Below are positions 10,185 to 29,472 of a stretch of DNA of 37,488 nucleotides, piece by piece; positions within the stretch are counted from its first letter, which is position 1, and the number at the start of each line of letters is the position of its first letter. Position numbers and translations under genes: made by a program. A model generated the notes under the pieces. The model was given only the letters and a program-made list of their open reading frames with translations. It ran no database searches and was not told the origin of the DNA. The DNA is from Pseudomonadota bacterium. GTDB lineage: Bacteria; Bdellovibrionota_B; Oligoflexia; Oligoflexales; CAIYRB01. The stretch spans positions 1 through 37,488 of the forward strand of contig JAYVBB010000175.1 of NCBI GenBank assembly GCA_043750715.1. The letters are read 5' to 3'.

Positions 10185-10188
10185 CGTT

Positions 10189-11019: not shown

Positions 11020-11069
11020 GTGCCGACTAATAGGTGCGAGTCCGCGCCGGGCGGTCACGAGAAGGCACG

Positions 11070-13322: not shown

Positions 13323-13352
13323 CGACGACAACCTTCTGACCGGAAACGAATC

Positions 13353-13880: not shown

Positions 13881-13886
13881 TGGTCG

Positions 13887-15422
13887 ATGGTCAAAGCGGA
13901 CAACGTCAACAACAACCTCATAGCGCTGATCAGCGCCGCGCTCTTCGGAATGGAGCTGTGGACCGGCACGGACCCTTTCTTCGCGTTTCTCATGGCGATG
14001 TGCGTCCTCTTCTTTTTTCTCTCCTTCAACCGCCTGGGCGGCCTGACGACACCTGTCGGAGGGGCCTTCACCGTCTTGGGCGCATCGACGGTACTCATCT
14101 CGCAAGTGGCTAAAATCGTGCTTTCGCAACCTGCGGATTCCTATTTGAAGGCTCCGCTGCCCACGGCGCTGGTGATGACTTTCGGCATGGCCTCGGTCTA
14201 CGTCGCGACTCACGTGAGGGACATCCTGCCGTCCATCACGCCAGCGGTTCGGGTGATCACGAATCCAAGCCAGTATCGGGCCATTTCTCTTCTGACCATC
14301 TCGACGCTCGTCCTCTTCTCGATTGCCGACGCTGTCATCCCGACGTTCCGGTTGATGCCCGGAGTCCTGGGATTCGTGGCTCTGATGCCCTATCTGTCAG
14401 GGCTCGCCTTGTGTACCGAAGTCGCCTACGCGATCAAGACCTCGGGCGGCCGGAAGTCCACCACTTTTCTGTTTTATCCGATCGTACTGTACATTTGGAT
14501 TCCGGCCTTTTACGGACTGTGGAAGTCCGGCATGTTTTTTCCGGTGATGATCTACCTCGTGACCATCTTCAGCTTCCGGTATCGCTTCCGGCCCGCCAAC
14601 TACGCGGCAGGCGTCGCCGTTTTGGGCCTGCTGTTTCTGATCGGCCTGCCTCTGTCCAAGCTGGGTCATAATTATATCGCGGACAAATACGAAGGCGACA
14701 TGATCGGCTCCCTGACCGAGTTCGCCGAAGACCTAGGAGAAAGCGGCGGCATCATGACGCTCCTCGATTCCCGGGTCGACGACTGGCTCGCCCCGTCAGA
14801 CGATAATGCATTCGGTCAATACTATGGCTCGGACATGGGATTCCTCGATCGTCAATCCCTCATCGCGGCAGCCGACTGGCTGATTGCCGACAGCCTCCCC
14901 CGTCAAACCGAAGGCCTCGAGCGGTTCTTTGGTCGGGTGACTCTGTTACCCAAAGCTCTGACTGGCGACGCCGTGACGGACGGCAGCAACAACTATCTGG
15001 CGGTACGCGCCGGTATTCTGGACGAGAACGACCTCGTCACGGGCATTGCTTTCGGCATCTTCGCCGACCTCTTCGCGCACTTCAATTTTTTGGGCTTGCT
15101 CTTATCCGCACCTTTGCTTTTTCTGGCTTTTTTCCTCGCGACGGATCTGGTGGCGCGCACGATGACCAACAATCTCTGGGGCATCATGATGTTTGCGGTC
15201 TCAGAACACACCCTGGCCGAAAGCAATGGCGCGGGAGTTATATTTCACATCGTGCGGACCGTCCCTTTTTTCATTGCCGTCTTCTACGTCATGGAGACTA
15301 CCTCCGGACTCTTGGTCGACTTCTTCCAGGACAGGCGATCCTCGCACGCGTCCTTGACGCTTCTACCGGTCGTCGCCAGGGGCGAGTTCGAAGGCATCCG
15401 AAGATCGGCTCGTGACCGGTGA
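13887..15422 (+). CDS. polytopic membrane protein, candidate Wzy-type polymerase of unrecognised family
   Basis: 511 aa. About 8 N-terminal TM segments, a ~110-aa hydrophilic loop (NYIADKYEGDM...GILDENDL), then about 3 more TM segments. Sits between the export and GT genes, 6 nt after the SLBB gene, and its stop overlaps the next start (GTGA). Confidence 0.65.
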   Translation: MVKADNVNNNLIALISAALFGMELWTGTDPFFAFLMAMCVLFFFLSFNRLGGLTTPVGGAFTVLGASTVLISQVAKIVLSQPADSYLKAPLPTALVMTFGMASVYVATHVRDILPSITPAVRVITNPSQYRAISLLTISTLVLFSIADAVIPTFRLMPGVLGFVALMPYLSGLALCTEVAYAIKTSGGRKSTTFLFYPIVLYIWIPAFYGLWKSGMFFPVMIYLVTIFSFRYRFRPANYAAGVAVLGLLFLIGLPLSKLGHNYIADKYEGDMIGSLTEFAEDLGESGGIMTLLDSRVDDWLAPSDDNAFGQYYGSDMGFLDRQSLIAAADWLIADSLPRQTEGLERFFGRVTLLPKALTGDAVTDGSNNYLAVRAGILDENDLVTGIAFGIFADLFAHFNFLGLLLSAPLLFLAFFLATDLVARTMTNNLWGIMMFAVSEHTLAESNGAGVIFHIVRTVPFFIAVFYVMETTSGLLVDFFQDRRSSHASLTLLPVVARGEFEGIRRSARDR

Positions 15423-16528
15423 AGAAAATCGTCTACTTCTGCGATTGGCTACCCCCGGACTTCGGGGCCGTCGGACAGTACAGCCTGCAATTCGCGCGGC
15501 AGCACGCGGCCAACGGCAATGAAGTTACGCTATTTGGGCTGTCTTCCACGGACGATTCCGTCACCTGGGAGACGATGGGGACGACGAATCTCGGCATCTT
15601 CCGCGTCCACTCCCGGATTTACGAACGTGCCGCTTTGAGCCGGCGCTTGCTGTGGACCGCGACGACCAACTGGCGTCTGCTTCGTCGGGCCTGGTCGTAT
15701 CTGCGGGCGGCCGATACCGTGATTTTCACCGGCAGCCCCCCCTTCCTCGTGCACTTTCTGGCTCCCTTGAATTGGTTCCTGCGCAAGGCGCTGGTTTACC
15801 GGATGACCGACTTCTATCCCGAATGCATCATCGCGGCGAAGCCGACGCTTCGCCCGTGGCTCTACCCCCTGCTGAGTCTCACCAATTTCTGGCGACGTCG
15901 GGTAGGCACCCTGGAAGTCATCGGTGACGACCAAAAAGAGCGGCTTCTCGGTTACGGCATTCCGAGCGAACGGATCGCCGTCGTGCGGGACCTGTCGCCC
16001 GTCGCGTTCAGCGGAAGCGAACCAAAGATCGGACGGCCTCGCACGGCTTCCCCGGGACCACTGCTGCTTTACTCCGGAAACCTCGGCGTTGCTCACGACT
16101 GGCAAACGTTCGCGGACGCCTACGTGTCACATCAAGCCGGCGGCAAGCCTTCGGTCAACCTCTGGTTGAATGCGACCGGATCCGGCGCCGATCTCCTGGA
16201 GCAAAGTCTCAAGTCGCGTGGGGCCCCCCTGCACCGAAGCGGCTTGGTCCCGCTAGCGGAACTTTCCAGCCTTCTCGTGAGCGTGGACGCTCACCTGATC
16301 ACGCTGAAAGACGAGTTCGTCGGGTACGTCCTGCCGTCCAAGGTTTACGCGTGCATCGATTCGAAGCGTCCGATTTTGTACATTGGCAGCAAAAAATCCG
16401 ACGTCTATCGGCTTTGCCTTCGGGGCCTCGCCGCCGACCGCTTCTTCCACGCCGAGGTCGGCGATCACCGTCGGGTCGCCGAGCATCTCGAGTCGCTTCG
16501 CAAGCTCTATCCTACGTCGTCTACGTAG
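15419..16528 (+). CDS. GT-B glycosyltransferase, family 4 (WcaI-like)
   Basis: N-terminus MKKIVYFCDWLPPDFGAVGQYSLQFA. C-terminal VLPSKVYACIDSKRPILYIG is typical of WcaI-like GT4 enzymes. The GTG start overlaps the upstream stop. Confidence 0.85.
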   Translation: MKKIVYFCDWLPPDFGAVGQYSLQFARQHAANGNEVTLFGLSSTDDSVTWETMGTTNLGIFRVHSRIYERAALSRRLLWTATTNWRLLRRAWSYLRAADTVIFTGSPPFLVHFLAPLNWFLRKALVYRMTDFYPECIIAAKPTLRPWLYPLLSLTNFWRRRVGTLEVIGDDQKERLLGYGIPSERIAVVRDLSPVAFSGSEPKIGRPRTASPGPLLLYSGNLGVAHDWQTFADAYVSHQAGGKPSVNLWLNATGSGADLLEQSLKSRGAPLHRSGLVPLAELSSLLVSVDAHLITLKDEFVGYVLPSKVYACIDSKRPILYIGSKKSDVYRLCLRGLAADRFFHAEVGDHRRVAEHLESLRKLYPTSST

Positions 16529-16857
16529 CGGATCAAATTCGCCAGGGTATCCGGCCAGTCGCCGCGGAAAGCCACTGCGCGGTCGTCCACGTAGGCGTCA
16601 GCGATCAGCTTTGGCCCGACGAAGACTTGGTCGAACGGAATTTGAAAGTGGTTGAGGAAGTCTTCGATGAAGGCGATTTCCTCAGGCAGTCGGTGCGCCG
16701 CAATGGCTTCAGTCGTGCGACACGTGTGAATTACTATGACGTGTCCCATCTGGCGCAGGCTGATCATGGCGTCGCGCGCCCCGTCGACGGGCCAGACATT
16801 GCCCTCGGCGTCCAGGTTCGCCAGCGTGTTGTCGAAGTCGACCGCGATCGTAGCCAA
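16507..16857 (-). CDS. 116-aa capless HAD-superfamily phosphatase ('mini-HAD'), locus A
   Basis: TTG start at 16857 is preceded by GGAG at 7 nt (MATIAVDFDNTL). All four HAD motifs are present: DFDNTL, VIHTCRT, K in GPKLIAD, YVDDRA. Only the 3' third of the listed 279-aa ORF is credible. Paralogue at 28617..28988. The 3' end overlaps the convergent GT gene by 22 nt. Confidence 0.8.
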   Translation of the reverse strand: MATIAVDFDNTLANLDAEGNVWPVDGARDAMISLRQMGHVIVIHTCRTTEAIAAHRLPEEIAFIEDFLNHFQIPFDQVFVGPKLIADAYVDDRAVAFRGDWPDTLANLIRYVDDVG

Positions 16858-16889
16858 ACTGAGTACTCCTATATGACGTAGCGGGATGT

Positions 16890-17897
16890 CTAGCTGGCGC
16901 GTTTGACGGCGCCCTGATCGCGACGCGGCTCGAGCCAGCCCGCCTTGTCGACCTGTGACGCCACCCACGCATAAGTCTTCGCCATACCCTCGCGCAGCGG
17001 CCGCGACGGCGCCCACTGGAGCTCTTTCATGATCAGCCGGTTGTCGGAGGACCTGCCGCGGACTCCGTTGGGCCCCTTGACGTGCTCGATGCTCAGCTTC
17101 TTGCCGGCGAGGTCCATCGCCATGTGCGCCAGGTCGTTGATCGAAAGCAGCTCGTCGGAGCCGATGTTCACCGGGCCGGCGAACGGCGAGTTCATCAAGC
17201 GGAGGACGCCCTCGACGCATTCGTCGATGTAGAGAAAGGTGCGCGTTTGTTTGCCGTCGCCCCAGATTTCGATGCTGTCGCCGTCGGCGGTCGCCGCGAC
17301 TTTCCGGCAGACTGCCGCCGGCGCCTTCTCGCGGCCACCCACCCAAGTGCCCTCCGGCCCGAAGATGTTGTGGAAGCGGGCGATGCGAACGTCGGTGCCG
17401 GCGTTGCGCTTGAATGCCAGGTAGAGGCGCTCACTGAAAAGCTTCTCCCAGCCATACTCGCTGTCCGGGGCCGCGGGATAAGCCGAGGCTTCTTCGCAGT
17501 TGGGATTGCTCGGGTCCATCTGATTGTGTTCGGGATAGATGCAGGCCGAGGAGGAGTAAAAGATCCTGCCCATGCGGCCTTGGCCGAGACGCAGGACGTT
17601 GAGATTTATCAGCGAGGAGTTCGACATGATCTGGGCATCGTTGTCGCCCGAAAAGATGAACGCCGCGCCACCCATGTCGGCAGCGAGCTGATACACCTCG
17701 TCGAAGGTTTCCTTGAACACCGTCTTCACGAAATCGGGCTGGGTCAGATCCCCTACGAGGAAACGGTGGGCGGGCGACGCCGAGAACTCATGCCGCTTCA
17801 GATCGACGCCGGTGACGTGATGGCCTGCATCCTTCAGGCGGCGAACGAGATGCCCCCCGATGAACCCTCCGGCACCACAGACCAAGACGCGCTTCAT
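16890..17897 (-). CDS. gme: GDP-mannose 3,5-epimerase (SDR, extended family)
   Basis: ATG at 17897 with a GGGGGAAG RBS. GAGGFIGGHL Rossmann motif. YSSSACIYPEHNQ, RFHNIFGPEGTWVGGREKAPAAVCRK, WGDGKQTRTFLYIDECVEGVLRL, PVNIGSDE and GPNGVRGRSSDN closely track the plant GME sequence as I recall it. Confidence 0.88.
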   Translation of the reverse strand: MKRVLVCGAGGFIGGHLVRRLKDAGHHVTGVDLKRHEFSASPAHRFLVGDLTQPDFVKTVFKETFDEVYQLAADMGGAAFIFSGDNDAQIMSNSSLINLNVLRLGQGRMGRIFYSSSACIYPEHNQMDPSNPNCEEASAYPAAPDSEYGWEKLFSERLYLAFKRNAGTDVRIARFHNIFGPEGTWVGGREKAPAAVCRKVAATADGDSIEIWGDGKQTRTFLYIDECVEGVLRLMNSPFAGPVNIGSDELLSINDLAHMAMDLAGKKLSIEHVKGPNGVRGRSSDNRLIMKELQWAPSRPLREGMAKTYAWVASQVDKAGWLEPRRDQGAVKRAS

Positions 17898-17944
17898 TGC
17901 TTCCCCCTGACGACCATTTCTCCAACCTCTCGGCGGACATAGGG

Positions 17945-17958
17945 ATATCGGCCGATAT
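17945..17958. promoter_or_regulatory. perfect 14-nt palindrome ATATCGGCCGATAT in divergent promoter region
   Basis: Lies in the comparatively AT-rich 236-nt gap between the divergent epimerase and carbamoyltransferase genes. Confidence 0.3.
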
Positions 17959-17995
17959 TCAGGGGTGCTGAAGAATAAATTGCCGCATCGTAACT

Positions 17996-18004
17996 TGCTA
18001 TAAT
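17996..18004 (+). promoter_or_regulatory. candidate extended -10 promoter element (TGcTATAAT) for carbamoyltransferase operon
   Basis: TGCTATAAT lies about 130 nt upstream of the proposed start at 18134. No well-spaced -35 element is seen. Confidence 0.25.
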
Positions 18005-18133
18005 TACAGGATTTAACAAAGGTCCGAGGCATGCGGCTGAAGCCCGGGAGTGTGATAAAATGGAGCTACTCCATCTCTAACCTCTTTGCCGGTCCAGCCC
18101 TCCCAATTCAACTCGCGCTCGTGGGGAAACTCC

Positions 18134-19894
18134 TTGAAGAAGCATGTCGTGCTTGGCATCAGCTCAAGCCACGGCGATTCGTCCGCGGCACTCATTGTCG
18201 ACGGGACGGTCGTTGCCGCCGTGGAAGAAGAGCGCTTCGACCGCATCAAGCATTCCGCGCAGTTTCCCGAGCACAGCATCCGTCACTGTCTGGCCGCGGC
18301 CGGCCTAAATGCGACGGACGTGGATCTCGTCGCGCTGCCGCGGAGCCGCTCCGCCGCCTGGCTCCGCAAGCTCCGGTTCGCCTGGAGCGGCCGCAACACG
18401 GTTTCGGGACTCGCCAACTACCTCAGCCGCGAACGCAATCGCAGCTCCGACGTCGAAGCCTTGGCCGAGTTGGGCTTTGACCCTTCCCGGCTGCGTCGCG
18501 TCGAGCATCACGTCGCCCACTTGATGAGCGTCCGGATGCTGCGCCCGCGGGACCCCATGGCGCTTTTGTCCTTCGACGGCTTGGGGGACTTTGCCTCCAC
18601 CGTGACCGCCGTGACGGACGGCGACAAGATGCGCGTGCTGAAGCGCACCTACTTCCCCCACTCGCTCGGCTTTTTCTACACGGCCATGACGCAGTTTCTA
18701 GGCTTTCCCTACTTTGGGGACGAGTTCAAAGCCATGGGTCTGTCGAGCTTCGGTCGGCCGCGCTACCTGGAAGCTCTGCGTGAGCTCGTGATGACCCGCC
18801 CGGACGGCGGTTTCGAGTTGAATCTGCGGGCGTTCCCCGTCGCCAAGTTGGGCAAATCCTTCCGCATCGACAAGGGCCGGCCGATCGTCGGACCGATCTT
18901 CGACGCGGACGTCGTCTCGGCCGTGCTCGGCCTGAAAGAGCGCCGCCCCGGGGACGAGGTGCTCCCCGAGCACGAAGACTTGGCCCTTTCAGTGCAGCGC
19001 CGCTTCGAGGAAGTGGCGGCGCACGTCCTCTGCGATCTGCACGCCAAGACCAAGAGCGACACCATCGCTCTAGCCGGTGGCTGCGCCCACAACAGCGTCT
19101 TCGTCGGCAAGATTCCCGCGCTTACCCCTTTCAAACAAGTCCTCGTCGCGCCGGCTGCGGGCGATGCCGGACTGGCATTGGGGGCCGCCGCCTGCGTCCA
19201 CGGCGGCGCCGTCACGCCCGCCAGCGGCCATTGGGGTCTGCTCGGTCCGGACATCGCGATGGATCAGGGTGCGTGGGTCGAGCTGGCGATTCCAACCCGG
19301 CAACGGCAGTACCAGGACGACGCTTCGCTGATCGAGCGCCTGGTCGACGAGCTCGTCAAAGGCAAGGTCGTCGGTCTGGCTCGGGGCCCGATGGAGTTCG
19401 GACCGCGCGCACTCGGCAGCCGCAGCATCGTTTGCGATCCGCGGCACGAATGGATGAAGCGGCGCCTCAACTCGCTGGTCAAGCATCGCGAGCCCTTCCG
19501 GCCTTTCGCCGCCTCCGTTCTCGAAGAGCAGCAGAACGACTGGTTTCAGAACTGCCGGGAGAGCCCCTTCATGGAAGCAGTCTTCGCCGTCAAACCCGAG
19601 CGCAAGGACGCCATACCAGCCGTCGTCCACGCCGACGGATCCTGCCGGATTCAATCGGTGTCGCATGCGAGCCAGCCGTTCTATCACGAGCTGATCAGCG
19701 CCTTCGCGAAACGGACGCAGGTGCCCATGCTGCTCAACACGTCTTTCAACGACAGCGAGCCCATCGTCCGCACCTCCGCTGAAGCCATCGACTGCTTCCT
19801 CCGCGGCGGTCTGGATCACGTCGTCATCGGACGAGTGCTGATCTCGCGCGAAGACGCCACGGCCTGGGGCGACCACCCGGCCAAAGCCGTCTAA
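18134..19894 (+). CDS. NodU/CmcH-family carbamoyltransferase
   Basis: VVLGISSSHGDSSAALIVDGTVVAAVEEERFDRIKH is the canonical N-terminus of the family, followed by GGCAHNSV and a C-terminal domain with PAVVHADGSCRIQ and LNTSFN. TTG at 18134 with a GGGGAA RBS is preferred to the ORF-track start at 18086; GTG at 18149 is also possible. Confidence 0.9.
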   Translation: MKKHVVLGISSSHGDSSAALIVDGTVVAAVEEERFDRIKHSAQFPEHSIRHCLAAAGLNATDVDLVALPRSRSAAWLRKLRFAWSGRNTVSGLANYLSRERNRSSDVEALAELGFDPSRLRRVEHHVAHLMSVRMLRPRDPMALLSFDGLGDFASTVTAVTDGDKMRVLKRTYFPHSLGFFYTAMTQFLGFPYFGDEFKAMGLSSFGRPRYLEALRELVMTRPDGGFELNLRAFPVAKLGKSFRIDKGRPIVGPIFDADVVSAVLGLKERRPGDEVLPEHEDLALSVQRRFEEVAAHVLCDLHAKTKSDTIALAGGCAHNSVFVGKIPALTPFKQVLVAPAAGDAGLALGAAACVHGGAVTPASGHWGLLGPDIAMDQGAWVELAIPTRQRQYQDDASLIERLVDELVKGKVVGLARGPMEFGPRALGSRSIVCDPRHEWMKRRLNSLVKHREPFRPFAASVLEEQQNDWFQNCRESPFMEAVFAVKPERKDAIPAVVHADGSCRIQSVSHASQPFYHELISAFAKRTQVPMLLNTSFNDSEPIVRTSAEAIDCFLRGGLDHVVIGRVLISREDATAWGDHPAKAV

Positions 19895-19904
19895 GCGGGC
19901 CGCA

Positions 19905-20912
19905 ATGACTTCGAACCGTCCGTCGCTGCTCTATCTCGGTCGCAAAAAAGGCCCGTTCTTCTCGATCGAGCGGGTTTTCGCCTGGGTCGGTCGGGAGGTC
20001 TCGTCGGACTTCGACGTGGCCTTCGCTGCTGCGCCGTGCGAAAGCCGTGGCCTGGTCCGCCGCCTCGTCAACGTTTTCTGGGCTGCCCGCGAGCGCCACG
20101 GAGTCGTGCACGTAACGGGCGACATCAACTACGTGGTTTTGGGCCTGTGGCACCGCGCGACCGTCCAAACCCTGCACGACATTCACACGCGGCATCGGCT
20201 CAAAGGCCTCCGGCGTTGGCTTTTCGACAAGCTTTGGATCGTCTGGCCGATCCGGGCGAGCGGCCTCACGACGGTCGTTTCCGAGTTCACGCGGGCGGAG
20301 ATCGCGGGAGTCCCCGGAGTCGACGCCGGCAAACTCGTCGTCGTCCACAACCCGGTGGACCCCTCGTACGTGTTTCGCGCGAAACCGTGGAATGCGCAGC
20401 GACCACGCCTGCTGCATGTCGGCACGACTCCCAACAAGAACCTCGAGCGGATCGTCGAGTCCGTGCGCGGAATCGTCTGCGAGCTGGGCGTGGTGGGACC
20501 GCTTACCGCCGCGCAGCGGGCACTCCTCGACGCCAGTGGCGTGGTGTACACGCAAAAGCAGGATCTCAGCTCCGAAGCATTGTACGAAGAATACTGCGCG
20601 TGCGACGTGGTCCTGTTCGCGTCGACCTACGAGGGCTTCGGCTTGCCCATCATCGAAGCGCAGACCGTAGGCCGCCCTTTGATTACCAGCCGGACGGCCT
20701 CGATGCCCGAAGTGGCCGGGGACGGCGCCGTCTTCGTCGACCCGTTCGACGTGCAATCCATCCGCGACGGGATCCTTGCCGTTACCGGGGACGAAGCCCT
20801 GCGCGCCCGACTGGTCGCCGCGGGACGGAAGAATGCCGAGCGCTTCCGCTTGCAGACGGTCGCCGCCGCCTACGCGGACGTCTATCGCCGGGTTCTGGCG
20901 AAGGCCCCTTAA
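19905..20912 (+). CDS. GT-B glycosyltransferase, family 4
   Basis: EGFGLPIIEAQTVGRPLITSRTASMPEVAGDGAVFVDP carries the E-x7-E type motif of GT4 enzymes. The ATG lies 10 nt after the carbamoyltransferase stop. Confidence 0.9.
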   Translation: MTSNRPSLLYLGRKKGPFFSIERVFAWVGREVSSDFDVAFAAAPCESRGLVRRLVNVFWAARERHGVVHVTGDINYVVLGLWHRATVQTLHDIHTRHRLKGLRRWLFDKLWIVWPIRASGLTTVVSEFTRAEIAGVPGVDAGKLVVVHNPVDPSYVFRAKPWNAQRPRLLHVGTTPNKNLERIVESVRGIVCELGVVGPLTAAQRALLDASGVVYTQKQDLSSEALYEEYCACDVVLFASTYEGFGLPIIEAQTVGRPLITSRTASMPEVAGDGAVFVDPFDVQSIRDGILAVTGDEALRARLVAAGRKNAERFRLQTVAAAYADVYRRVLAKAP

Positions 20913-21034
20913 TTGCCTGATATGTCGGGAATTTTGTTGGCCGCTTGAGGAATTTTCCGCCGCGTAGCCTAAGCATAGCCCCCAAGCGGTCCGATACCTA
21001 GATTGGTCGATCTTTCCAATCAGATGGGCGGCAA

Positions 21035-22783
21035 GTGAGCAACTCACGCGGCAATTCCGGGCCTTCGCGTTTGGCGATCCTTGGATTCGCGCTTCAAACT
21101 CTTCGCATGGCGTCGTCCACTTCGCCGAGGCATGCCGTACTCGGAATCGCCAGTCCGCTGGCACTCGGCTCGCTCAACTTCGCCGTCGAGGCGGCGTTCG
21201 CCGCGCAGTTCCAGGCTGCCCTGGCCTCGCTCGGCATCTCGCTCGGGGGCGAGTCGAACGCGACCGGCTTTTTCCATCACCAAACTCTGAACACGGCAAT
21301 CGTGTTTCTCCTGATCATCGGGACGATTAGAGCCGTACTCTCCGCCTTGCAGATCTTTTCCTACGGCTACTTTATGGAAAAGTTTCGCTACCTCTTTCGT
21401 CACCGGCTTCTCGATGACGTCCAGGAGCGCGGCACCATCGTCGGAGACCGGGTTGTCGCCAATTTCACCGAAGACATCAACCGTGTGGCCGAATTGTTCT
21501 GCTCCATCACGACGATGACCGGCGGCTTGGTTCAAGCTTTGTTGGCAATGTTGGCAATGTTCTATCTGGCACCCGCGGTGACGGTTGGCGTGATCTTGAT
21601 GGGAATCGCCGGATATCTCCCTCTCTACTATCTGACTCGCCGACAGCTCGAGATAACCAGCCAAGCCTCTCACTATTGGGAACAGGCCAGCTCGGCTCTG
21701 CTCGACGCCTTGCGCAACCACACGCTGCTGAAAATCCACAAGGCCGAATCGACGCAGTACGCCAAGGTCCAGCTCAACCTCGCGACGAGCCTCGACCACA
21801 TCCTGACGAGCCATGCGGCGTCCAGCTTTCGCATGTTTCACCCCCAGTTTCTCGGCGTGGTGGGGATCGCGGCCTTGATTTACGTCGCTCACCGCTGGAG
21901 CCCGTTTCCGGCCGGGACGCTGTTTCCCTTCCTCTACATCATGGGGCGTACCGCGCAGAACCTCTCGATGGCTTCGCTGCAAATCGGCTCGATAAAGGCC
22001 GTAGCAGGAAATATCGATGCCTTGCAGCCTTACATGGACCGTCAGTGCCCCTCTGCGAGGTCCGCAGGGAAGAAGGCTGGTCGCCGCGCGGATCACGGCC
22101 AGCTGAACATCGGCTGGACGCTGGCAGGCGTAGGCTTTGCCTACCCGAAGTCTCCGGCCCGCGTCCTCGACCGCCTCGATCTCCGCATCGTTCCCGGCAC
22201 GTTCACGCTGATTACCGGTGCTTCCGGTTCGGGTAAGTCGACCCTCCTGCAACTTTTGATCGGCGAACTAACCCCCCAACAGGGAAGCGTCGTGGTCGAC
22301 TTCGGTAACGGAGTGTCCGGCCCCCTGAGCAAGTTGAAGGACGAGCTCCTGTCCAGCATCGGCTACGTCGGCGTCGGCGGAGCACTCCTGCACGCGACGG
22401 TTCGGGAGAACCTCATGCTGGGCATCGAGAACCAGCCGACCGAACACGAAATCGCCGCGACCCTGGAGGCATGCAAGTGCGACTTCGTCTACGAACTGCC
22501 GCAAGGGATCGACACCCTGATCTCCCCGACCGACGTCGGCATCTCCACTGGACAACGCCAACGGATCGCCCTGGCACGGGCGCTTCTACGCCGGCCGCGC
22601 GCGCTGCTTCTCGACGAGGCGACAGCCAATCTGGACAGTGAGACGGCGCGGGTGATCGCGAGCGAAATCCTGCGGCTCAAGGGGCTAGTCACCATCGTCG
22701 CCATCAGCCACGGCTTCGAGTTCGCGGAACACGCGGACGTCCACGTGGATCTCAAGCCGGCCGCAGACCGTCTGGCGTCCTGA
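21035..22783 (+). CDS. fused ABC exporter (six-TM ABC_membrane domain + ATPase), locus A
   Basis: Walker A GASGSGKSTLLQLL, signature ISTGQRQRIALARALL, Walker B LLLDEATANLD, H-loop ISHG. N-terminal ~330 aa is polytopic. The start is uncertain: GTG 21035 or ATG 21107. Confidence 0.9.
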   Translation: MSNSRGNSGPSRLAILGFALQTLRMASSTSPRHAVLGIASPLALGSLNFAVEAAFAAQFQAALASLGISLGGESNATGFFHHQTLNTAIVFLLIIGTIRAVLSALQIFSYGYFMEKFRYLFRHRLLDDVQERGTIVGDRVVANFTEDINRVAELFCSITTMTGGLVQALLAMLAMFYLAPAVTVGVILMGIAGYLPLYYLTRRQLEITSQASHYWEQASSALLDALRNHTLLKIHKAESTQYAKVQLNLATSLDHILTSHAASSFRMFHPQFLGVVGIAALIYVAHRWSPFPAGTLFPFLYIMGRTAQNLSMASLQIGSIKAVAGNIDALQPYMDRQCPSARSAGKKAGRRADHGQLNIGWTLAGVGFAYPKSPARVLDRLDLRIVPGTFTLITGASGSGKSTLLQLLIGELTPQQGSVVVDFGNGVSGPLSKLKDELLSSIGYVGVGGALLHATVRENLMLGIENQPTEHEIAATLEACKCDFVYELPQGIDTLISPTDVGISTGQRQRIALARALLRRPRALLLDEATANLDSETARVIASEILRLKGLVTIVAISHGFEFAEHADVHVDLKPAADRLAS

Positions 22784-22799
22784 AGTCACCTTCAGGACG
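22776..22799. terminator. perfect 10-bp hairpin spanning both stop codons of convergent genes (possible bidirectional terminator)
   Basis: CGTCCTGAAG-tcac-CTTCAGGACG. The ABC TGA (22781-22783) sits in the left arm and the M14 TGA (complement of 22792-22794) in the right arm. There are no flanking U tracts. Confidence 0.4.
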
Positions 22800-23817
22800 T
22801 TCCGTACCAGAGGTCCTTGGCTTTGCCTTCGCAACGGTCGGCTTCCATGCGGGCGGCCGAAAGCCAGTTTTCGTGCGAAACCGTCGCCCGGAACAGGAAG
22901 TCGAGCAGCGCCAGGTGCCTGCGCAGCGTACGTTGGATGCGGTGCGGCAGCACGGGGTTGAAAATCCCCAGCGACGACAAAGCCTGCCGCGGGTTCTTTT
23001 TGATCCAAAGCCATGATCCCATCTCGAGAGTCAGCGGCAGAAAGACCCGGCCCCGCGCCGCTTGCCGATGCTCCAGAAACAGGTAGTCCCACAAATCGCC
23101 GTGGGTCACGTACTTCAGGGATTGGGGTTCCATCAGGTAGTAATGGTTCGGCAGGCTCCGGTCCAGGCGCACTTTCAGAGCGTACATTTTCCCGAGATGG
23201 TCGAAGGACTGCTTCGAGTAAGCGAACGGAAACCACAAGCGGTCGACCATCCCGAAGCCCGAATGCATGTCGAGGGCGACCGAGAACCGGCTGGGAAACA
23301 CCTCGCGGCGGATGAACTCGGCCAAGGCTACGGCTTCTGGCTGCATCGGCTCGCCTGCCGCTCCGCGGTACCAGGGCAGGTGCTTCGAGATGCGGTGGCC
23401 GCCGACGAGCGGAATGTTCGGCTTGGTCTCCGCGTCGAGCGGAGCGTTACGCATCAAATCGACGCCGAGGGGGTTGGACCTCGTGCCGGAATACATGCCG
23501 GCCGGATTCACCAGGGGGTAAAACACCATGCGGGCATTGCGAAGCAGGTGCTCGAGGCCCTTGTCCCAAGCCAGGAGCTCGACCAGCGTCCGGAGCTGCG
23601 ACAATGCGACGTTGGTGCCGATGCGCTCGAGCCCGTGCACGCCTCCGACGTACGCCACGGTAGGAGCAGAGCGGTCGGCGGTGCCGAATACGAATGAGTA
23701 GAGAGGAAACACCTCTCCCGCGTGGCGCACTTCCCCTTCGAGCCGGACCGTGCCGTATCCCCGGCAACTCTCAGCCAGTTCCTTCAACTCGAGCATTTCG
23801 GGGAGACGGCGCTTCAC
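22792..23817 (-). CDS. M14-family zinc carboxypeptidase/amidase-like protein (DUF2817/MpaA-like)
   Basis: Zn and catalytic pattern: GGVHGLERIG (HxxE), VNPAG, NPLGVDLMRN, DMHSG, LTLEMG. Candidate starts are GTG 23844, GTG 23817 (GAGAGG RBS, used here) and ATG 23796. All of them overlap the 3' end of the upstream acyltransferase gene. Confidence 0.75.
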   Translation of the reverse strand: MKRRLPEMLELKELAESCRGYGTVRLEGEVRHAGEVFPLYSFVFGTADRSAPTVAYVGGVHGLERIGTNVALSQLRTLVELLAWDKGLEHLLRNARMVFYPLVNPAGMYSGTRSNPLGVDLMRNAPLDAETKPNIPLVGGHRISKHLPWYRGAAGEPMQPEAVALAEFIRREVFPSRFSVALDMHSGFGMVDRLWFPFAYSKQSFDHLGKMYALKVRLDRSLPNHYYLMEPQSLKYVTHGDLWDYLFLEHRQAARGRVFLPLTLEMGSWLWIKKNPRQALSSLGIFNPVLPHRIQRTLRRHLALLDFLFRATVSHENWLSAARMEADRCEGKAKDLWYGTS

Positions 23818-24514
23818 TGTGGAACCTCTCGGCGATCCGGGCACGAACCTCGCGGGCGATCAACTTTCTCGATTTGTGTCCTCGGAACGCCACTTCGCCC
23901 AGGACCGAGACCTGGGCTCTGATCGTCTTCGTTTGCATGAGGCTCCAGAGATGGGGGAAGAACGTCATCTCCCCATACCAGGCGACCTCGGGCGCCTGGT
24001 CATACCGAAGACACACGGGTACGACGCGACATGAGCTGCGTATCGCCGATTCTAGCAAAGTTTTCTTGAACTCCATAAGGTGTTCGCCGTTGGACGTCGA
24101 CCCTTCCGGGAAGAGCGTGACCGAATGGCCGCGATTCAGGAGATCGGCCAGCTGAATGATGTCCTGCTGCACGCTCCAGACGTTGCGCCGCTCGACGAAG
24201 GCACAGCCGGCGGCGCGGGTGATCCAGCCGAGCACGGGGGTTTGCTCGATCTCCCGCGACGTGACGAACACGGACGGAAAGATCGCATTGATTACGATGA
24301 CGTCGACGTAAGAAATGTGATTCGGCAGCACGAGAATCGGCCGACCCTCGACCTCCGCGAGCCCCTCGGGATCGTCGACCTCGCAGCGGATGTCCAGGAT
24401 CCTCATCAACAGGAAGCACACGAGCCGCGTCAGGGCCACGACGCGCCGTTGCCCGGAGTCCCGCGACGTGGTGGTCATGCGGAGGAGCAGGGCGGCCGGC
24501 ACGAAAGAGATCAT
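23771..24514 (-). CDS. olsA: PlsC-family lysolipid O-acyltransferase (OlsA-like)
   Basis: NHISYVD (HX4D) and FPEGSTSNG motifs. The ATG at 24514 overlaps the upstream stop (ATGA). The longer 345-aa ORF-track version would run through the upstream gene and is Arg-rich. Confidence 0.8.
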   Translation of the reverse strand: MISFVPAALLLRMTTTSRDSGQRRVVALTRLVCFLLMRILDIRCEVDDPEGLAEVEGRPILVLPNHISYVDVIVINAIFPSVFVTSREIEQTPVLGWITRAAGCAFVERRNVWSVQQDIIQLADLLNRGHSVTLFPEGSTSNGEHLMEFKKTLLESAIRSSCRVVPVCLRYDQAPEVAWYGEMTFFPHLWSLMQTKTIRAQVSVLGEVAFRGHKSRKLIAREVRARIAERFHSEAPSPRNARVEGTG

Positions 24515-25347
24515 GCACCAAGCGAAGAGGACAAGTTTCGCGACCGCTCGGGCTCTCTCATGAACTTGCGATCGAAGGCCGCGGCCATTGCGCTCATATT
24601 CAGCATCGTCAACCAATCTGCGCAATTGAAATCGCGATCGATCACCGGTTGCGAACATATCTTGGCTCCTGCCTTGAGATAGGTTTTGAACAGCGACGGA
24701 ATCTCGATCGGCTCGTCGTTCTCTTCGGGAATGATCACGGAGTCGAAGCCGTCGATCCGGTACCCTTCCCGCGCTTTGACCGCGTGCGTGAGGTCGACCA
24801 TCCCGCACTGGACAAAGTAGCGGTGGATCCGGGCTATCTCAAGAACGTCCGTCGTATTGATGCTGGAGAGGCCGAAGAGGTAGTCGGCTCCCGATGCCTT
24901 GATGTATTCGGCGATCCCTCTCCAAAGGAGGTTGATCACAATGCCGTTACGGTAGTCGCGGTGAATGCAGGCGCGGCTGAGCTCGACCTTGTGCCCTGGC
25001 ACGTCGAGCAAGCCGCCGATCTCGAACTCGGTGTTCGAGTAGAATTTGCCGCTGGGTCCGGTAGGGATCAACCGGTAGACGCCGGCGATGCGTCCCGCCT
25101 TGCGGTCGAAGATGGCGACGTGATCGGCGATGTCGTCGAACTCGTCCTGGTCACTCTTGAGGCTGATCCATTTCTTCGCGAACTCGTAATGGAAAACTGA
25201 GCGCCGTAGCGCGAGAACCTGCTTGAGCTCCGCCCGATTCGAAATCGTCTTGACGTGATAGTCACGCACCGTGAAATCGACCAGGATCACGTTGGACAGC
25301 ATCATGCACCCCGCTGTAAACGTTGAAGTCACCAAGATCTTCATCAA
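24511..25347 (-). CDS. olsB: OlsB-family GNAT N-acyltransferase (lyso-ornithine-lipid / N-acyl amino acid synthase)
   Basis: RAELKQVLALRRSVFHYEF, AGVYRLIP, ELSRACIHRDYRNG and the C-terminal PSLFKTYLKAGAKICSQPVIDRDFNCADWLTML match the OlsB / hemolysin-like acyltransferase pattern. The start is 25347/25344 or the internal ATGATG near 25305. Confidence 0.8.
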   Translation of the reverse strand: MMKILVTSTFTAGCMMLSNVILVDFTVRDYHVKTISNRAELKQVLALRRSVFHYEFAKKWISLKSDQDEFDDIADHVAIFDRKAGRIAGVYRLIPTGPSGKFYSNTEFEIGGLLDVPGHKVELSRACIHRDYRNGIVINLLWRGIAEYIKASGADYLFGLSSINTTDVLEIARIHRYFVQCGMVDLTHAVKAREGYRIDGFDSVIIPEENDEPIEIPSLFKTYLKAGAKICSQPVIDRDFNCADWLTMLNMSAMAAAFDRKFMREPERSRNLSSSLGA

Positions 25348-25407
25348 ACCTAGATGGGACGATTAAAGGACGCATAAAGCCAAATTAAAATCTTTAAGCA
25401 AAAGACA

Positions 25408-25446
25408 TAAAAAACTGCCGCCGGTCCCCGAAGGGGCCGGCGGCAG
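25408..25446 (-). terminator. rho-independent terminator downstream of the M28 peptidase gene
   Basis: Minus strand reads CTGCCGCCGGCCCC-TTCG-GGGACCGGCGGCAG followed by TTTTTTAT. About 13 bp of GC-rich stem with one bulge. Confidence 0.75.
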
Positions 25447-25478: not shown

Positions 25479-26762
25479 TTAGTTGAGACCGCCGAAGTGC
25501 ATGATGTACGCAAGTCCCAGCTTCGCGAAACCTGCGGCTTGGTTGAAGGCATTGGCGTTGGTGACGTTGTCTTCGGCCGAGTGGATCTTGTGGTTGTAGC
25601 TCGTCGGATTCTCGAAAGGGAACGAGGTCGCGTAGCCCGCCCGGCGCCAGGAGGCGTGGTCGCTGCTGCCACCGGACAGGTTCGCCTTCGCCCAGGGCAT
25701 GCCGGAGTAGCCGTCTACCAGCTGGCCGAGCATGTCGTTGAACGCCGAGTCCGTGTTGTTGTTCACGAACCAGATCTTGTCGGGGGCCCCGGTGGCCTTC
25801 CAAAGATCCATGTCGTGCTGAACCATGGCAACCACGTTGACGCCCGCGGCTTTGTAGTCGTTGGCGATGTCTTGGCTGCCGACCAGCCCGACTTCTTCCG
25901 CCGCGTAGGCGTGGATTTCGAGGGAGCGCTCGAGGTGGATGTCGTTGGCCATCAGCAGGCGGAAGATCTCGAGGTTGGTCGCGGTCCCGGAGGCGTTGTC
26001 GTCCGAGCCCGGAGCGCGCCCGCTTGAGCCGTTCTGCCAATTGACGCTGTCCAGGTGACTGCCGAGCACGATTACCTCCGATGCCCGCGTCGTACCCTGG
26101 ATCTTCACGACCAGGCTCCGCTGCGGGGTGGCGCTGCCGTGATCATAGGTACTGATCGTCACGTCGGTGCGACCGCCTTTGAGCGCGTCGTACTTTTGCG
26201 CCAGCATCTCGGCGACGCCGAGGCCGGTCGTCGTGTTGTGGAAGCGGGTGTTGATCGCCGACAGCTCGTCGATCGTCCGGGCGATGTTCTGGGCGAGGAC
26301 CTGCTCGGTGACCCGGGTCACGCGCGCGTCCCGTTGCGCTAGCGGAATGATCGGGGTAGGCGTCGCCGCGGTTTCAGCCAACGGTTGGCCGTCGAGCTTC
26401 TCGAGCACGCCGCAGGCGAGGCCCGAGCCGTGTAAGCGGCCGGCGACTTCGTCGATGCGGTCGGCCTTGACGCGCATGATCGCGACGCGATGCGGCTCGA
26501 ACGCGAGGACGTCGCCGAGCGCCGCGACCTGCGCGGGGAGCGAGCTCTCGAGCGACATGTTGAGCACGTAAACTTCCTGGAAGTCTTCGCGTGTTGCGGT
26601 GGCCGTGCGGAGAACTGCGAGGTCGCCGTCGCGGTACAGCACGCGCTCGGCGTTCACAGGAGCGAAAGCGGAAAGGCCTTTGACGACCTCGACGGGGCTG
26701 GCGGCAAATGCCGCGCTTCCCCAAACCGACGCGAGCAAAACGGAAATGATCCCGGTTTTCAT
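25479..26762 (-). CDS. secreted M28-family aminopeptidase
   Basis: Signal peptide MKTGIISVLLASVWGSAAFA. GSHLDS, PGSDDNASGTA, AAEEVGLVGS and SDHASW are the M28 co-catalytic zinc ligand motifs. GGGGGAG RBS. Confidence 0.9.
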   Translation of the reverse strand: MKTGIISVLLASVWGSAAFAASPVEVVKGLSAFAPVNAERVLYRDGDLAVLRTATATREDFQEVYVLNMSLESSLPAQVAALGDVLAFEPHRVAIMRVKADRIDEVAGRLHGSGLACGVLEKLDGQPLAETAATPTPIIPLAQRDARVTRVTEQVLAQNIARTIDELSAINTRFHNTTTGLGVAEMLAQKYDALKGGRTDVTISTYDHGSATPQRSLVVKIQGTTRASEVIVLGSHLDSVNWQNGSSGRAPGSDDNASGTATNLEIFRLLMANDIHLERSLEIHAYAAEEVGLVGSQDIANDYKAAGVNVVAMVQHDMDLWKATGAPDKIWFVNNNTDSAFNDMLGQLVDGYSGMPWAKANLSGGSSDHASWRRAGYATSFPFENPTSYNHKIHSAEDNVTNANAFNQAAGFAKLGLAYIMHFGGLN

Positions 26763-26891: not shown

Positions 26892-26970
26892 CCAGCTCAT
26901 TGTTTTCCCGCACGACATCCTTTATTTAAGCGCCCGAGTTTCGAAATCAGCAATCCATTTGGAGGACATC

Positions 26971-27591
26971 ATGAAGAAGTTCGTTCCTTATGCTCTCGCC
27001 GCTGCCGCCGTCACGATGATCGCCGCATCCGCTCAGGCCGACCACCGCGGTCGTGACAGCGATGCCGTCTCCGCATCCCAGCAGGTCGAACAGGACGCTT
27101 ACGCCCTGGTCCAGATCCTTGCCCGCGGCGGCCCCGCCAACACCCAACTCATCCAAAATGGCGGCATGGTCGCCAAGGAAGCGCAGGACCTCACCAACTC
27201 GCTTACGGGTCACGGCATTTCCAATGCCGAGCAGGAATTTCGGGAAGTTTTGCGCGCCTTCGACATCCTCAGTGACAACTTCCGCTGGCAAGGGCGTCAA
27301 AGCGGCATGGCGCAAAACGCTTTCTATCGCCTCGACTCCAGCGTTCAGGACCTGGAATATGCGTTCGGAGGCGGCGGTCGGGACGGTCGGGACGGTCGCG
27401 ATGGCCAGGACGGTCGGGATGGCCGCGACGGACGTGACGGCCAAGACGGACGCGACGGCCAAGACGGACAGGATGACGGCAGTGACTGGGGCCAGGACCC
27501 AGGCAACGACGGCGGCGGCGACGACTGGGGCCAGAGCGACGACGGTCAGGACGGCGGCCAGGACGACGGCGACCGGGGCGTTCGTCACTGA
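26971..27591 (+). CDS. secreted acidic protein with collagen-like Gly-X-Asp repeat tract
   Basis: ATG at 26971 lies 4 nt after GGAGGA. Signal peptide MKKFVPYALAAAAVTMIAASAQA. A ~110-aa helical domain, then GGGG(GRD)3GQD(GRD)3GQDGRDGQDGQD and a D/G/W-rich tail. Confidence 0.75.
   Translation: MKKFVPYALAAAAVTMIAASAQADHRGRDSDAVSASQQVEQDAYALVQILARGGPANTQLIQNGGMVAKEAQDLTNSLTGHGISNAEQEFREVLRAFDILSDNFRWQGRQSGMAQNAFYRLDSSVQDLEYAFGGGGRDGRDGRDGQDGRDGRDGRDGQDGRDGQDGQDDGSDWGQDPGNDGGGDDWGQSDDGQDGGQDDGDRGVRH
27376..27474 (+). repeat. imperfect 9-nt tandem repeat (11 units) encoding G-R/Q-D triplets
   Basis: ggt cgg gac / ggt cgg gac / ggt cgc gat / ggc cag gac ... The units differ mainly at synonymous positions. 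Confidence 0.9.
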
Positions 27592-27611: not shown

Positions 27612-27630
27612 GAGGGCGTGAAGCGCCCTC
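27612..27630 (+). promoter_or_regulatory. GC-rich hairpin enclosing the RBS and GTG start of the GT8-like gene (terminator/attenuator-like)
   Basis: GAGGGCG-tgaag-CGCCCTC is a perfect 7-bp stem followed by TTCCCATTT. The left arm contains the GAGGG Shine-Dalgarno-like sequence, and the GTG at 27618 straddles the stem/loop junction. Confidence 0.35.
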
Positions 27631-28610
27631 TTCCCATTTCGACAGTGTACGTCGCGTGTTACTACCGGGACTATTGGATGGCCCGGGCGTGCGTAGCCAG
27701 CGTCCGCTACTTCTATCCTGACATCGAGATCCTGCTGATCAAGGATACGGCTGCCGGCGACTTTTGCACGCGCGAGCTGGAAGAGGCCTGGTCGGTCAAA
27801 TGCCTGGAAACGACGCGGCGGGCGTTCGGATGGGGCTTCGTCCATCTCGAGACGCTTTTCGTGCCCCGGCCGGGTCGCTACCTTTGCCTCGACTGCGATA
27901 TCGTGCTGCTCGGGCCGGTTCTGGACGAGCTGGAGAAAGATCCCGCCGATTTCATCGTGGCATTGGACCAAGACGGACCCGCGACCCTGGAGGCGGCGAA
28001 CGACCGGATTTCCTGGATGCACGGGAACTATTACCACCCCGAGCGCCTGCCCCAGTACGATCCGGACTACGTTTACCCGGGATTTCTCTTCAACGCCGGA
28101 CAGTTCGTGGGAACGCCCTCGCTTTTCGACCGGGATGACCTGTCGCCCCTAATCGAATGGACGGAGCCGCCGCGCGTGCGCGACTTGCATACGTTCGGCC
28201 GCGGCGACCAGGGTCCTTTCAACTACTTCCTGACGAAGCAAGCCGCCCTGGGGCGCATCCAGCTCAGCGTCCGACCTTACATGCATTGGCCCGGGTGGCC
28301 AGGGACGGCGGACTTCTCGGTGCCCAAGATCGCCGCCAAAACGGAAACGCCCAAGATCCTGCACTGGGCCGGCCGGGGAACCAACGAAGCCGGACGCCTG
28401 GCGCGCGCCGACATCTTTCGCTTCTTCGAAACCCACTACTACACCAGGATCGCCGACGGCCGCCGCAAGCGGATTCAGCGGAACGTCGGCCAGATCCTCG
28501 GCGAGCGCCTCGCCGGAGCGGCCAGAGGCGTCAAGCGCTTCGCGCCGCAGTCAGTAAGAAACCGGTTGAAAAAGAGCGTCTATCGCTGGGTAGCCCGCCT
28601 CACGAGTTGA
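27618..28610 (+). CDS. GT-A fold glycosyltransferase, family 8-like
   Basis: STVYVACYY (beta1), LDCDIV (DxD), FNAGQFV, GDQGPFNYFL and ILHWAG resemble the GT8 motif order (DxD ... FNAG ... DQD.LN ... HY.G). Confidence 0.65.
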   Translation: MKRPLPISTVYVACYYRDYWMARACVASVRYFYPDIEILLIKDTAAGDFCTRELEEAWSVKCLETTRRAFGWGFVHLETLFVPRPGRYLCLDCDIVLLGPVLDELEKDPADFIVALDQDGPATLEAANDRISWMHGNYYHPERLPQYDPDYVYPGFLFNAGQFVGTPSLFDRDDLSPLIEWTEPPRVRDLHTFGRGDQGPFNYFLTKQAALGRIQLSVRPYMHWPGWPGTADFSVPKIAAKTETPKILHWAGRGTNEAGRLARADIFRFFETHYYTRIADGRRKRIQRNVGQILGERLAGAARGVKRFAPQSVRNRLKKSVYRWVARLTS

Positions 28611-28989: not shown

Positions 28990-29472
28990 CTATTGCCGTT
29001 TCGAGACGAAGTAAAGCGTAAGGACGGAAACCGCGGACGACACCGCGGCAAAAATCAGCGGCAGGTCCGACTTGAAAGTGCGTTCGACGTAAATCATGTC
29101 CCGATCTTTCACGGTGAAGGACTCGGCATTGTGAAACAGGTCCAGGTACTGCTCTTTGCTGTCCCGAACCAGGCGAATGTTCGGCATGTTGGCCAGTCCG
29201 GTCGGACCGCCCGCCGATCCCAGCGCATCGGTCAGCTTCGAGCCGACCGGAATGAAGTGAACTCCCGGCTGGAAGACCTCACCCCAGATGTTGACGCTGA
29301 CCAGGACTTTCGCGCCGGGCTTGGTCGTGAAGAATTCGGAGCCCGACCGCTTGGGCAACTCGTCCGGCTGAACGTACGGCTCGGCAACCAGCCGCGAGCT
29401 CCAAAATGACAAGATCAGGATACCGGCGAGAAAGCGGTATTTTTTGAGACGAACGGGGCATCTGGTGGTCAT
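28990..29472 (-). CDS. SLBB-domain 'mini-OPX' paralogue, locus B
   Basis: Signal peptide ends LVA-EP. SLBB segment VSVNIWGEVFQPGVHFIPVGSKLTDALGSAGGPTG...IRLVRD, then VKDRDMIYV. C-terminal helix LPLIFAAVSSAVSVLTLYFVSKRQ. Confidence 0.8.
   Translation of the reverse strand: MTTRCPVRLKKYRFLAGILILSFWSSRLVAEPYVQPDELPKRSGSEFFTTKPGAKVLVSVNIWGEVFQPGVHFIPVGSKLTDALGSAGGPTGLANMPNIRLVRDSKEQYLDLFHNAESFTVKDRDMIYVERTFKSDLPLIFAAVSSAVSVLTLYFVSKRQ

Follow-up and report, generated by a model that had tools for sequence, protein, structure and literature searches.

The locus

The window analysed here is a stretch of 37,488 nucleotides from contig JAYVBB010000175.1 (assembly GCA_043750715.1), which belongs to a bacterium of the order Oligoflexales. 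Six sequencing runs, all of them DNA metagenomes and stemming from two studies, contain this stretch wholly or in part. Three open reading frames (ORFs) on its minus strand overlap head to tail. In the order of transcription, they encode an OlsB-like N-acyltransferase, a PlsC/OlsA-like O-acyltransferase and a zinc hydrolase with the fold of the M14 metallopeptidases. This analysis focuses on the third enzyme and on its relation to the two acyltransferases, which resemble the synthases of ornithine-type lipids. Sequence comparisons give good support to the view that the M14 enzyme takes part in aminolipid metabolism, because the adjacency of its gene to an OlsB-like gene is conserved across several gene orders and lineages. 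The three genes are arranged as follows.

24511-25344, minus strand: OlsB-like GNAT N-acyltransferase, as read from the ORF; alternative starts at TTG 25347 and ATG 25304
23771-24514, minus strand: PlsC/OlsA-like O-acyltransferase, ATG start at 24514, stop codon at 23773-23771
22792-23817, minus strand: M14-fold zinc hydrolase, likely start GTG 23817; alternatives at 23844 and 23796

The start codons of all the operon genes are predictions. The four letters ATGA at 24514-24511 comprise both the start codon of the PlsC-like gene and the stop codon of the OlsB-like gene. For the M14 gene, in-frame starts are available at GTG 23844, GTG 23817, ATG 23796 and TTG 23787, which overlap the PlsC-like gene by 74, 47, 26 and 17 nucleotides, respectively. 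GTG 23817 is the likely start, with an overlap of 47 nucleotides with the 3′ end of the PlsC-like gene, because a segment kept among the M14 homologues in the alignment (RRLPEL) is encoded 5′ of ATG 23796 and because GAGAGG precedes GTG 23817 with a spacing of 7 nucleotides. An earlier note on this DNA, prepared from the sequence alone, had described the ATGA overlap as well as M14 starts reaching 26-74 nucleotides into the PlsC-like gene. Direct reading of 24514-24511 confirms the former, and the latter holds for the starts at 23844, 23817 and 23796.

The acyltransferase pair

The OlsB-like protein contains a PF13444 GNAT domain, matched over its full length in Pfam (79.6 bits, E 3.2e-22), and its relatives align from about residue 12-30 onward. 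The PlsC/OlsA-like protein matches PF01553 (81.5 bits, E 6.2e-23) and has the two motifs of this class, NHISYVD (HX4D) and FPEGSTS (EGT-type). Both proteins score below the equivalog cut-offs of NCBIfam. The OlsB-like protein reaches 112 bits against a cut-off of 350 for NF052554 and 95 against 320 for NF052555, and the PlsC/OlsA-like protein reaches 109 and 98 bits (NF052553, NF052552) against the OlsA cut-off of 300. Despite these scores, the best NCBIfam models for the pair are those of OlsB and OlsA. We therefore assign the pair as a predicted OlsB/OlsA-like aminolipid synthase, for which the scores do not settle the amino acid of the head group.

The closest known arrangement is the olsB-olsA ornithine lipid operon, known for example from Sinorhizobium meliloti and Pseudomonas aeruginosa, in which a PF13444 gene is likewise followed by a PF01553 gene with overlapping stop and start codons. 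The window pair differs from this operon in scoring far below the equivalog level (112 of 350 and 109 of 300 bits at best) and in being extended by a third, overlapping M14 gene.

The M14 protein

In Pfam, the third protein matches PF00246 (E 3.9e-15); no NCBIfam model matched it. Residues H54, E57, R106, R116, H178 and E258 are invariant in all 18 aligned homologues, and the intact HxxE...H...E set that had been noted in the window protein is thus a constant of its relatives. The zinc ligands (HxxE and the distal histidine) and the catalytic glutamate align with those of carboxypeptidase A4. R106 and R116 are the equivalents of Arg127 and Arg145, and the position of Asn144 is occupied by an invariant methionine (M115). 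The N-terminus shows neither a hydrophobic stretch nor a signal peptide, and there is no pro-domain ahead of the catalytic domain, whose start falls in the first 15 residues or so. The protein is taken to be cytoplasmic and is probably located at the membrane surface.

An AlphaFold model built on the homologue alignment has a mean pLDDT of 82 and a pTM of 0.85. It is closest to carboxypeptidases B, T and A (Z 24-25 over 261-273 residues, Foldseek E ~1e-13, TM-score 0.58-0.66). Lower matches are MpaA (Z 15.6) and the cyanophycin dipeptidase CphZ (Z 14.9). With carboxypeptidases B, T and A4 (PDB 7eqx, 1obr, 1kwm, 2bo9) the enzyme shares the fold, the zinc ligands, the catalytic glutamate and the two arginines, at an identity of 17-20%. 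Unlike these carboxypeptidases, it has no signal peptide or pro-domain, carries methionine at the Asn144 position and possesses two family-specific loops together with a longer, basic C-terminal helical region. Furthermore, the genomic partners of its family are lipid enzymes and not proteolytic systems.

A second group of relatives comprises the N-acyl-amino-acid deacylases AstE, DoeB and aspartoacylase (AspA) as well as DUF2817, with which the enzyme has the zinc-hydrolase fold in common. DUF2817 (PF10994) is matched at E ≤ 1 by 17 of the 18 homologues, with a best value of 4.5e-7; no functional study of this family was found in the open literature. For AstE_AspA_cat (PF24827), the window protein scores 15.2 bits against a gathering cut-off of 25, and weak matches occur in 7 of the 18 homologues (best E 0.0034). 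The deacylases remove acyl groups bound to the alpha-amine of free amino acids, the same chemistry as proposed for the M14 enzyme. Their structures match less closely than those of the carboxypeptidases (Z 11.6-13.7), and their known substrates carry short acyl groups and are not lipids. The protein atlas picture of the enzyme agrees with these structural and profile matches.

Two segments of the model, residues 124-139 and 262-285, are highly conserved and rich in Trp, Lys, Arg and Phe, yet their pLDDT stays below 50. They may be loops that become ordered on the membrane or on a lipid substrate.

Linkage in related genomes

We searched 41 genomes, the window genome and 40 relatives from its genus, family and order, with thresholds of E ≤ 1e-50 for an M14 orthologue and E ≤ 1e-10 for an OlsB-like gene. 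An M14 orthologue is present in 22 of the 41 genomes and an OlsB-like gene in 26. Both occur together in 20 genomes, the M14 gene alone in 2, the OlsB-like gene alone in 6 and neither in 13. The two genomes with the M14 gene alone are incomplete, one at 81% with M14 at a contig start, the other at 53%. Where both genes are present, they lie within 2.3 kb of each other on one contig in 17 of 20 genomes, spread over seven families, although the compared genomes are kin and such counts are not phylogenetically independent. As for the remaining three, one contig ends 17 bp past M14, and two genomes of a single genus have the genes on separate contigs.

The order OlsB-PlsC-M14 is found in the window's own family and in two others. 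Elsewhere among the relatives the genes are arranged as M14-OlsB-PlsC, as OlsB-M14 without PlsC, as a divergent OlsB/M14 pair or with M14 convergent to PlsC-OlsB. At least five gene orders thus keep M14 near the OlsB-like gene. Proximity that survives rearrangement is a classical mark of functional coupling. The earlier note had named a lack of conserved adjacency as one finding that would count against its reading. The adjacency is conserved in 17 of the 20 related genomes with both genes, in several orders, and again in scattered proteobacteria.

The tight overlap seen in the window is not universal within its genus. In two genus relatives (L004 and L006) the PlsC-like match ends about 350 bp before M14 and neither abuts nor overlaps it, as seen in comparison with a third (L003).

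The wider family and its hydrolase partner

The M14 family extends far beyond this lineage. Among 8,000 scored clusters at 90% identity, at least 7,658 match with E ≤ 0.001, and 117 clusters at 50% identity match with E ≤ 1e-30. Scanning one genome per species yielded 551 confirmed M14 relatives, and the 80 best loci were taken further. These come from Oligoflexales, Bdellovibrio, many Burkholderiales, Nevskiaceae, Oceanospirillaceae and others. In addition, 805 crude ORFs (the longest non-overlapping ones) from 100 loci were clustered all-against-all; the partner counts given below were taken from tblastn instead.

Across the 100 loci the only recurrent partners are OlsB, PlsC and an alpha/beta hydrolase. 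The last is the one dominant neighbour of M14. It has about 260-290 residues (PF12146, PF12697, PF00561), begins on the M14 stop codon or shortly behind it and lies directly 3′ of M14 in 59 of the 76 loci with at least 700 bp of downstream sequence. An OlsB-like gene occurs within 5 kb of M14 in 18 of the 80 loci, within 2.3 kb in 16; Burkholderiales and one Ketobacteraceae genome are among them. Of the 80 loci, 5 contain PlsC. All four genes stand together in two loci only, L013 and L060. Counted over the 100 loci, M14 is accompanied by OlsB and PlsC alone in 14, by OlsB and the hydrolase alone in 7 and by all three in 2. Where the M14-hydrolase pair is unlinked to OlsB, a PF13444 gene was found elsewhere in five of five genomes, compared with 2 of 14 control genomes; two of these five genes are OlsF-like frames of 576 residues.

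M14 and the hydrolase also meet in one polypeptide. P0184 (586 residues) joins an alpha/beta hydrolase and an M14 domain in frame and keeps the motifs of both, and its hydrolase half aligns over the full length with the M14-linked hydrolase. It is apparently a genuine fusion protein. Two other candidates, P0271 (M14 with PF13444) and P0272 (M14 with the hydrolase), were rejected as real fusions, as their middle parts read like out-of-frame translation, and they are retained as evidence of adjacency only.

A quick maximum-likelihood tree of 97 M14 sequences (IQ-TREE) groups the window's M14 family with an Oligoflexus record (SH-aLRT 95). Linkage to OlsB appears in several separate clades of this tree. 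One locus, L040, comes from a metagenome bin titled Bordetella parapertussis; its M14 groups with Ideonella and Aquabacterium (Sphaerotilaceae), and the label looks doubtful.

The nearest precedent for a hydrolase of this kind is the OlsH/OlsI pathway of planctomycetes, where, in the parts of PMC12493201 drawn on here, an alpha/beta hydrolase encoded in an aminolipid cluster acts on lyso-ornithine lipid. The M14-linked hydrolase differs from it in not being an OlsI equivalog and in having no GH3-like gene beside it, and the window locus has PlsC instead. Identity of the partner with OlsI was considered and rejected: two members score 23.3 and 25.1 bits against the NF052614 cut-off of 385, and a third gave no match at E ≤ 0.001. 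A match in the window genome, at C257 (31% identity), was likewise rejected as the partner orthologue. It behaves as a paralogue, since in a reciprocal search of a relative another hydrolase came first (2e-52), ahead of the M14-linked one (1.2e-21). In five further genomes of the window's family, the M14-linked hydrolase found matches of only 26-29% identity.

In the Bdellovibrio/Pseudobdellovibrionaceae group (L056:6808-10906, also L027, L070 and L093), two conserved genes without a Pfam match follow the M14-hydrolase pair. One encodes about 478 residues with an outer-membrane-barrel-like C-terminal Phe, the other about 890 residues. The M14-hydrolase system may be an extended one in this group.

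We also inspected the immediate flanks of the M14(-hydrolase) unit. From 144 selected flanking ORFs, 136 were scanned, the 8 longest being left out. Families of the phosphate-starvation or lipid-renovation type are carried by 15 of the 136 proteins, a count made without control loci. They comprise three phytase-like proteins, two calcineurin-type phosphoesterases (Metallophos), two glycosyltransferase matches (GT28 C-terminal and EryCIII-like C-terminal), and one each of GDPD, PhoX, PhoR, polyphosphate kinase, 5′-nucleotidase, CHAD, CYTH and PhnA. The flanking proteins also include a fatty-acid hydroxylase and a desaturase. We treat a phosphate-starvation setting of the M14-hydrolase pair as a lead. 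The hydrolase partner, the wide distribution of M14 beyond its own lineage and these neighbourhoods are additions to the earlier note.

Operon boundaries and flanking genes

The sequences on either side of the operon contain the following features.

25348-25408, minus strand: AT-rich leader, recognised by GC content, presumed promoter region of the operon
25409-25446, minus strand: intrinsic terminator of the M28 gene, with a bulged, GC-rich 14-bp stem (25415-25446) and a U-run (25409-25414)
25479-26762: gene for a secreted M28 aminopeptidase, upstream of the operon, as read from the ORF
22776-22799, no strand assigned: perfect 10-bp hairpin over the M14 stop codon, found by folding, without a T-run
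21035-22783: ABC exporter gene, convergent with M14, as read from the ORF

For the hairpin 3′ of the M28 gene, the folding energy is -32.1 kcal/mol (z -4.6), none of 200 shuffles being as good, and UUUUUU comes directly after it. A simple terminator scan missed it owing to the bulge, and it was detected by folding. This terminator insulates the operon from the upstream gene. Between the two, the GC content falls to 0.33 (25350-25409), compared with about 0.62 across the window. A scan with the sigma-70 consensus detected no promoter for the operon. A Pho-box scan with an E. coli-type consensus, in which up to 3 mismatches were allowed, found a single site, which is remote from the operon, and 32 of 100 shuffles did equally well. 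At the other end, the hairpin across the M14 stop codon reaches -29.5 kcal/mol on the minus strand (z -5.5) and -27.0 kcal/mol on the plus strand (z -5.2). It lies 8 nucleotides from the stop codon of the convergent ABC exporter gene and may serve as a two-way transcription stop.

The earlier note had proposed a three-gene coupled unit with its own upstream region, set apart by a strong terminator from a secreted M28 aminopeptidase. The overlapping ORFs, the dip in GC content and the hairpin with its U-run bear out the unit and its insulation, and the M28 protein indeed has a signal-peptide-like N-terminus. The M28 gene is not a conserved neighbour of M14, as tblastn gave no match to it in the 80 loci with flanks of up to 5 kb.

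Other features of the window

Relatives in the genus have a PabA/TrpG-like GATase gene and a gene for a secreted protein without a Pfam match immediately next to the 3′ end of M14. Their homologues in the window (55% and 40% identity) are located at 1446-2042 on the minus strand and 2042-2842 on the plus strand. They are about 20 kb away from M14, which implies an insertion in the window genome or a deletion in the relatives. The intervening region (2900-22783) holds polysaccharide genes: a sugar transferase, a chain-length kinase, glycosyltransferases, an epimerase, a carbamoyltransferase and the ABC exporter.

On the other side of the operon, positions 26959-27591 (plus strand) could encode a 210-residue protein with a signal-peptide-like start, C-terminal GRDG/GQDG repeats and no Pfam match; because the opposite strand carries a longer, overlapping ORF, coding on the plus strand is putative. 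Between the M28 region and a second polysaccharide cluster there is an ORF of 330 residues (27618-28610, plus strand) for which Pfam gave no family at E ≤ 0.01. Lastly, 28990-29472 (minus strand) encodes a 160-residue protein with one SLBB domain (PF22461, 1.8e-10), beside glycosyltransferase, Wzy-like and kinase genes (29.6-37 kb).

Proposed function and alternatives

The observations comprise the structure of the operon, the intact catalytic residues and the fold of the M14 protein, and its conserved linkage to OlsB, PlsC and the hydrolase. From them we infer a substrate, a direction of reaction and a physiological purpose for the M14 enzyme. Our preferred reading, held tentatively and at somewhat less than an even chance, is that of an aminolipid amidase which cleaves the N-acyl-amino acid, the lyso-lipid, together with the esterase where one is present. 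The three genes would form one operon for an ornithine-type (acyloxyacyl) aminolipid. The OlsB-like enzyme would make an N-(3-hydroxyacyl)-amino acid, the lyso-aminolipid, to which the PlsC/OlsA-like enzyme would add the ester-bound fatty acid. The M14 protein would be a zinc amidohydrolase dedicated to this lipid class.

A reason to expect cleavage of the amide in the lyso-aminolipid is that an N-acyl-amino acid whose alpha-carboxylate is free has the form of a carboxypeptidase substrate. The enzyme would handle it like the C-terminus of a peptide: a conserved arginine would hold the free alpha-carboxylate, and the amide between fatty acyl group and amino acid would be cut, releasing the amino acid and a 3-hydroxy fatty acid. 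Carboxypeptidase A is known to cleave N-acyl-amino acids that are not peptides, for instance ochratoxin A. In the lineage of the window, which has PlsC and no partner hydrolase, the M14 enzyme might clear surplus, membrane-damaging lyso-lipid as a safety valve or permit turnover and remodelling. In most other lineages, the alpha/beta hydrolase would first remove the ester-bound fatty acid, and the pair would dismantle the whole lipid. M14 and hydrolase would then reverse what OlsB and OlsA, or the fused OlsF, accomplish. Among the readings considered, deacylation fits best with the alpha/beta-hydrolase partner and with carboxypeptidase chemistry.

Several points weigh against an amidase. An amidase translated together with the enzymes of synthesis would seem to set up a futile cycle if it were neither specific for the lyso-lipid nor regulated, although genes for synthesis and breakdown share operons elsewhere, as in glg and cphA/cphB. 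The window's own family seems to be without the hydrolase partner, the best matches having 26-31% identity. The invariant methionine at the Asn144 equivalent points to substrate binding unlike that of classical M14 enzymes. In proteobacteria, the pair often stands beside phosphate-starvation genes, a condition in which aminolipids are made and not removed, which favours biosynthesis or remodelling. Finally, the partner hydrolase need not be an esterase, because alpha/beta hydrolases can act as O-acyltransferases in this very pathway, as described for OlsI in the parts of PMC12493201 considered.

These last points lead to a biosynthetic or remodelling pair, which we consider unlikely. Here the hydrolase would be an O-acyltransferase and the M14 enzyme would work in the direction of condensation or transfer, so that under phosphate starvation the two produce or remodel aminolipids with fatty acids that are free or come from phospholipids. 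The 15 flanking proteins of the phosphate-starvation and lipid-renovation type agree with this, as does the OlsI precedent (PMC12493201). PlsC and the hydrolase are, moreover, largely though not strictly alternative to each other in the 100 loci. RhlA is a further example of an O-acyltransferase with the alpha/beta-hydrolase fold, and the mammalian M20 enzyme PM20D1 works in the condensing or transfer direction. The scores of the hydrolase, however, lie far below the OlsI equivalog level (23-25 bits against 385, with no match for one of three members). An N-acylating M14 enzyme would duplicate the adjoining OlsB, and zinc carboxypeptidases are not known to act as synthases in cells.

Similarly unlikely is a trimming of the head group, in which the OlsB-like enzyme or a later step would yield a lipid with a dipeptide or otherwise extended head group and the M14 enzyme would remove the C-terminal residue, thereby setting the final head group. 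Dipeptide-headed aminolipids, the serine-glycine lipids, do exist, and the portion of section 10 of PMC12971839 considered here does not name the serine-adding enzyme. The carboxypeptidase fold, the retained carboxylate-binding arginine and the translational coupling to the synthases would all suit such a step. It would, however, leave the conserved hydrolase partner without a role, and no gene for adding a second residue, such as an ATP-grasp enzyme or a ligase, recurs among the 805 ORFs of the 100 loci.

Less probable still is a supply of substrate, with the M14 enzyme releasing the amino acid of the head group, such as ornithine, from short peptides or from an N-acetylated precursor for use by the OlsB-like enzyme. 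AstE and DoeB, which have the same fold, deacylate small N-acyl-amino acids (functions according to the titles of the structure entries), and the M14 gene shares one unit with the synthase. The hydrolase partner, the fusion protein and the conserved aromatic and basic loops would remain unexplained, however. M14 tracks OlsB, and no gene of arginine or ornithine metabolism recurs in the loci.

We give as little weight to an unrelated housekeeping peptidase, a murein-peptide or general cytoplasmic carboxypeptidase which stands near lipid genes by chance or through shared ancestry. The structural match to MpaA is compatible with such an enzyme, and 53 of the 80 wider loci have no OlsB-like gene within 2.3 kb of the M14-hydrolase pair. 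Against it, the proximity outlasts at least five rearrangements and recurs in separate M14 clades, and 20 of the 22 genomes with M14 also have OlsB. By our own estimate, two single-copy genes would lie within 5 kb of each other by chance in about 0.2% of cases in a genome of 4-5 Mb, to be read with the reservation that the observed counts are not phylogenetically independent.

The least probable proposal, made by analogy and very doubtful, is that M14 and the hydrolase are sufficient by themselves for acyloxyacyl aminolipid synthesis, as a fourth route that is independent of ATP and ACP. M14 would join a fatty acid to an amino acid or exchange the amino acid, like PM20D1, and the hydrolase would O-acylate the product, like OlsI. 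The two would recycle phospholipid fatty acids in phosphate starvation, with M14 in the window diversifying or exchanging the head group of the OlsB/OlsA lipid.

Significance

When phosphate is short or under stress, many bacteria substitute ornithine-type lipids for phospholipids, and these lipids also signal to host immunity. Three routes for their synthesis and several modifying enzymes are known. A search of the open full-text literature, with subscription journals outside its scope, found no paper that ties a peptidase to these lipids and no enzyme for their removal or recycling. Likewise, a word search of the 2026 review PMC12971839 and the sections considered here showed no mention of a peptidase, degradation, turnover, catabolism, deacylation or recycling.

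Across Bdellovibrionota and several proteobacterial orders, a family of M14 zinc hydrolases accompanies the synthase genes, usually together with an esterase-like partner. If the amidase reading is true, the M14 enzyme would be the first known enzyme for breaking down or remodelling ornithine-type lipids. The family would represent either the missing aminolipid hydrolases or a new maturation step, and in both cases it would add a step to a pathway that has been considered mapped and could provide a tool for controlling the aminolipid content of engineered membranes.

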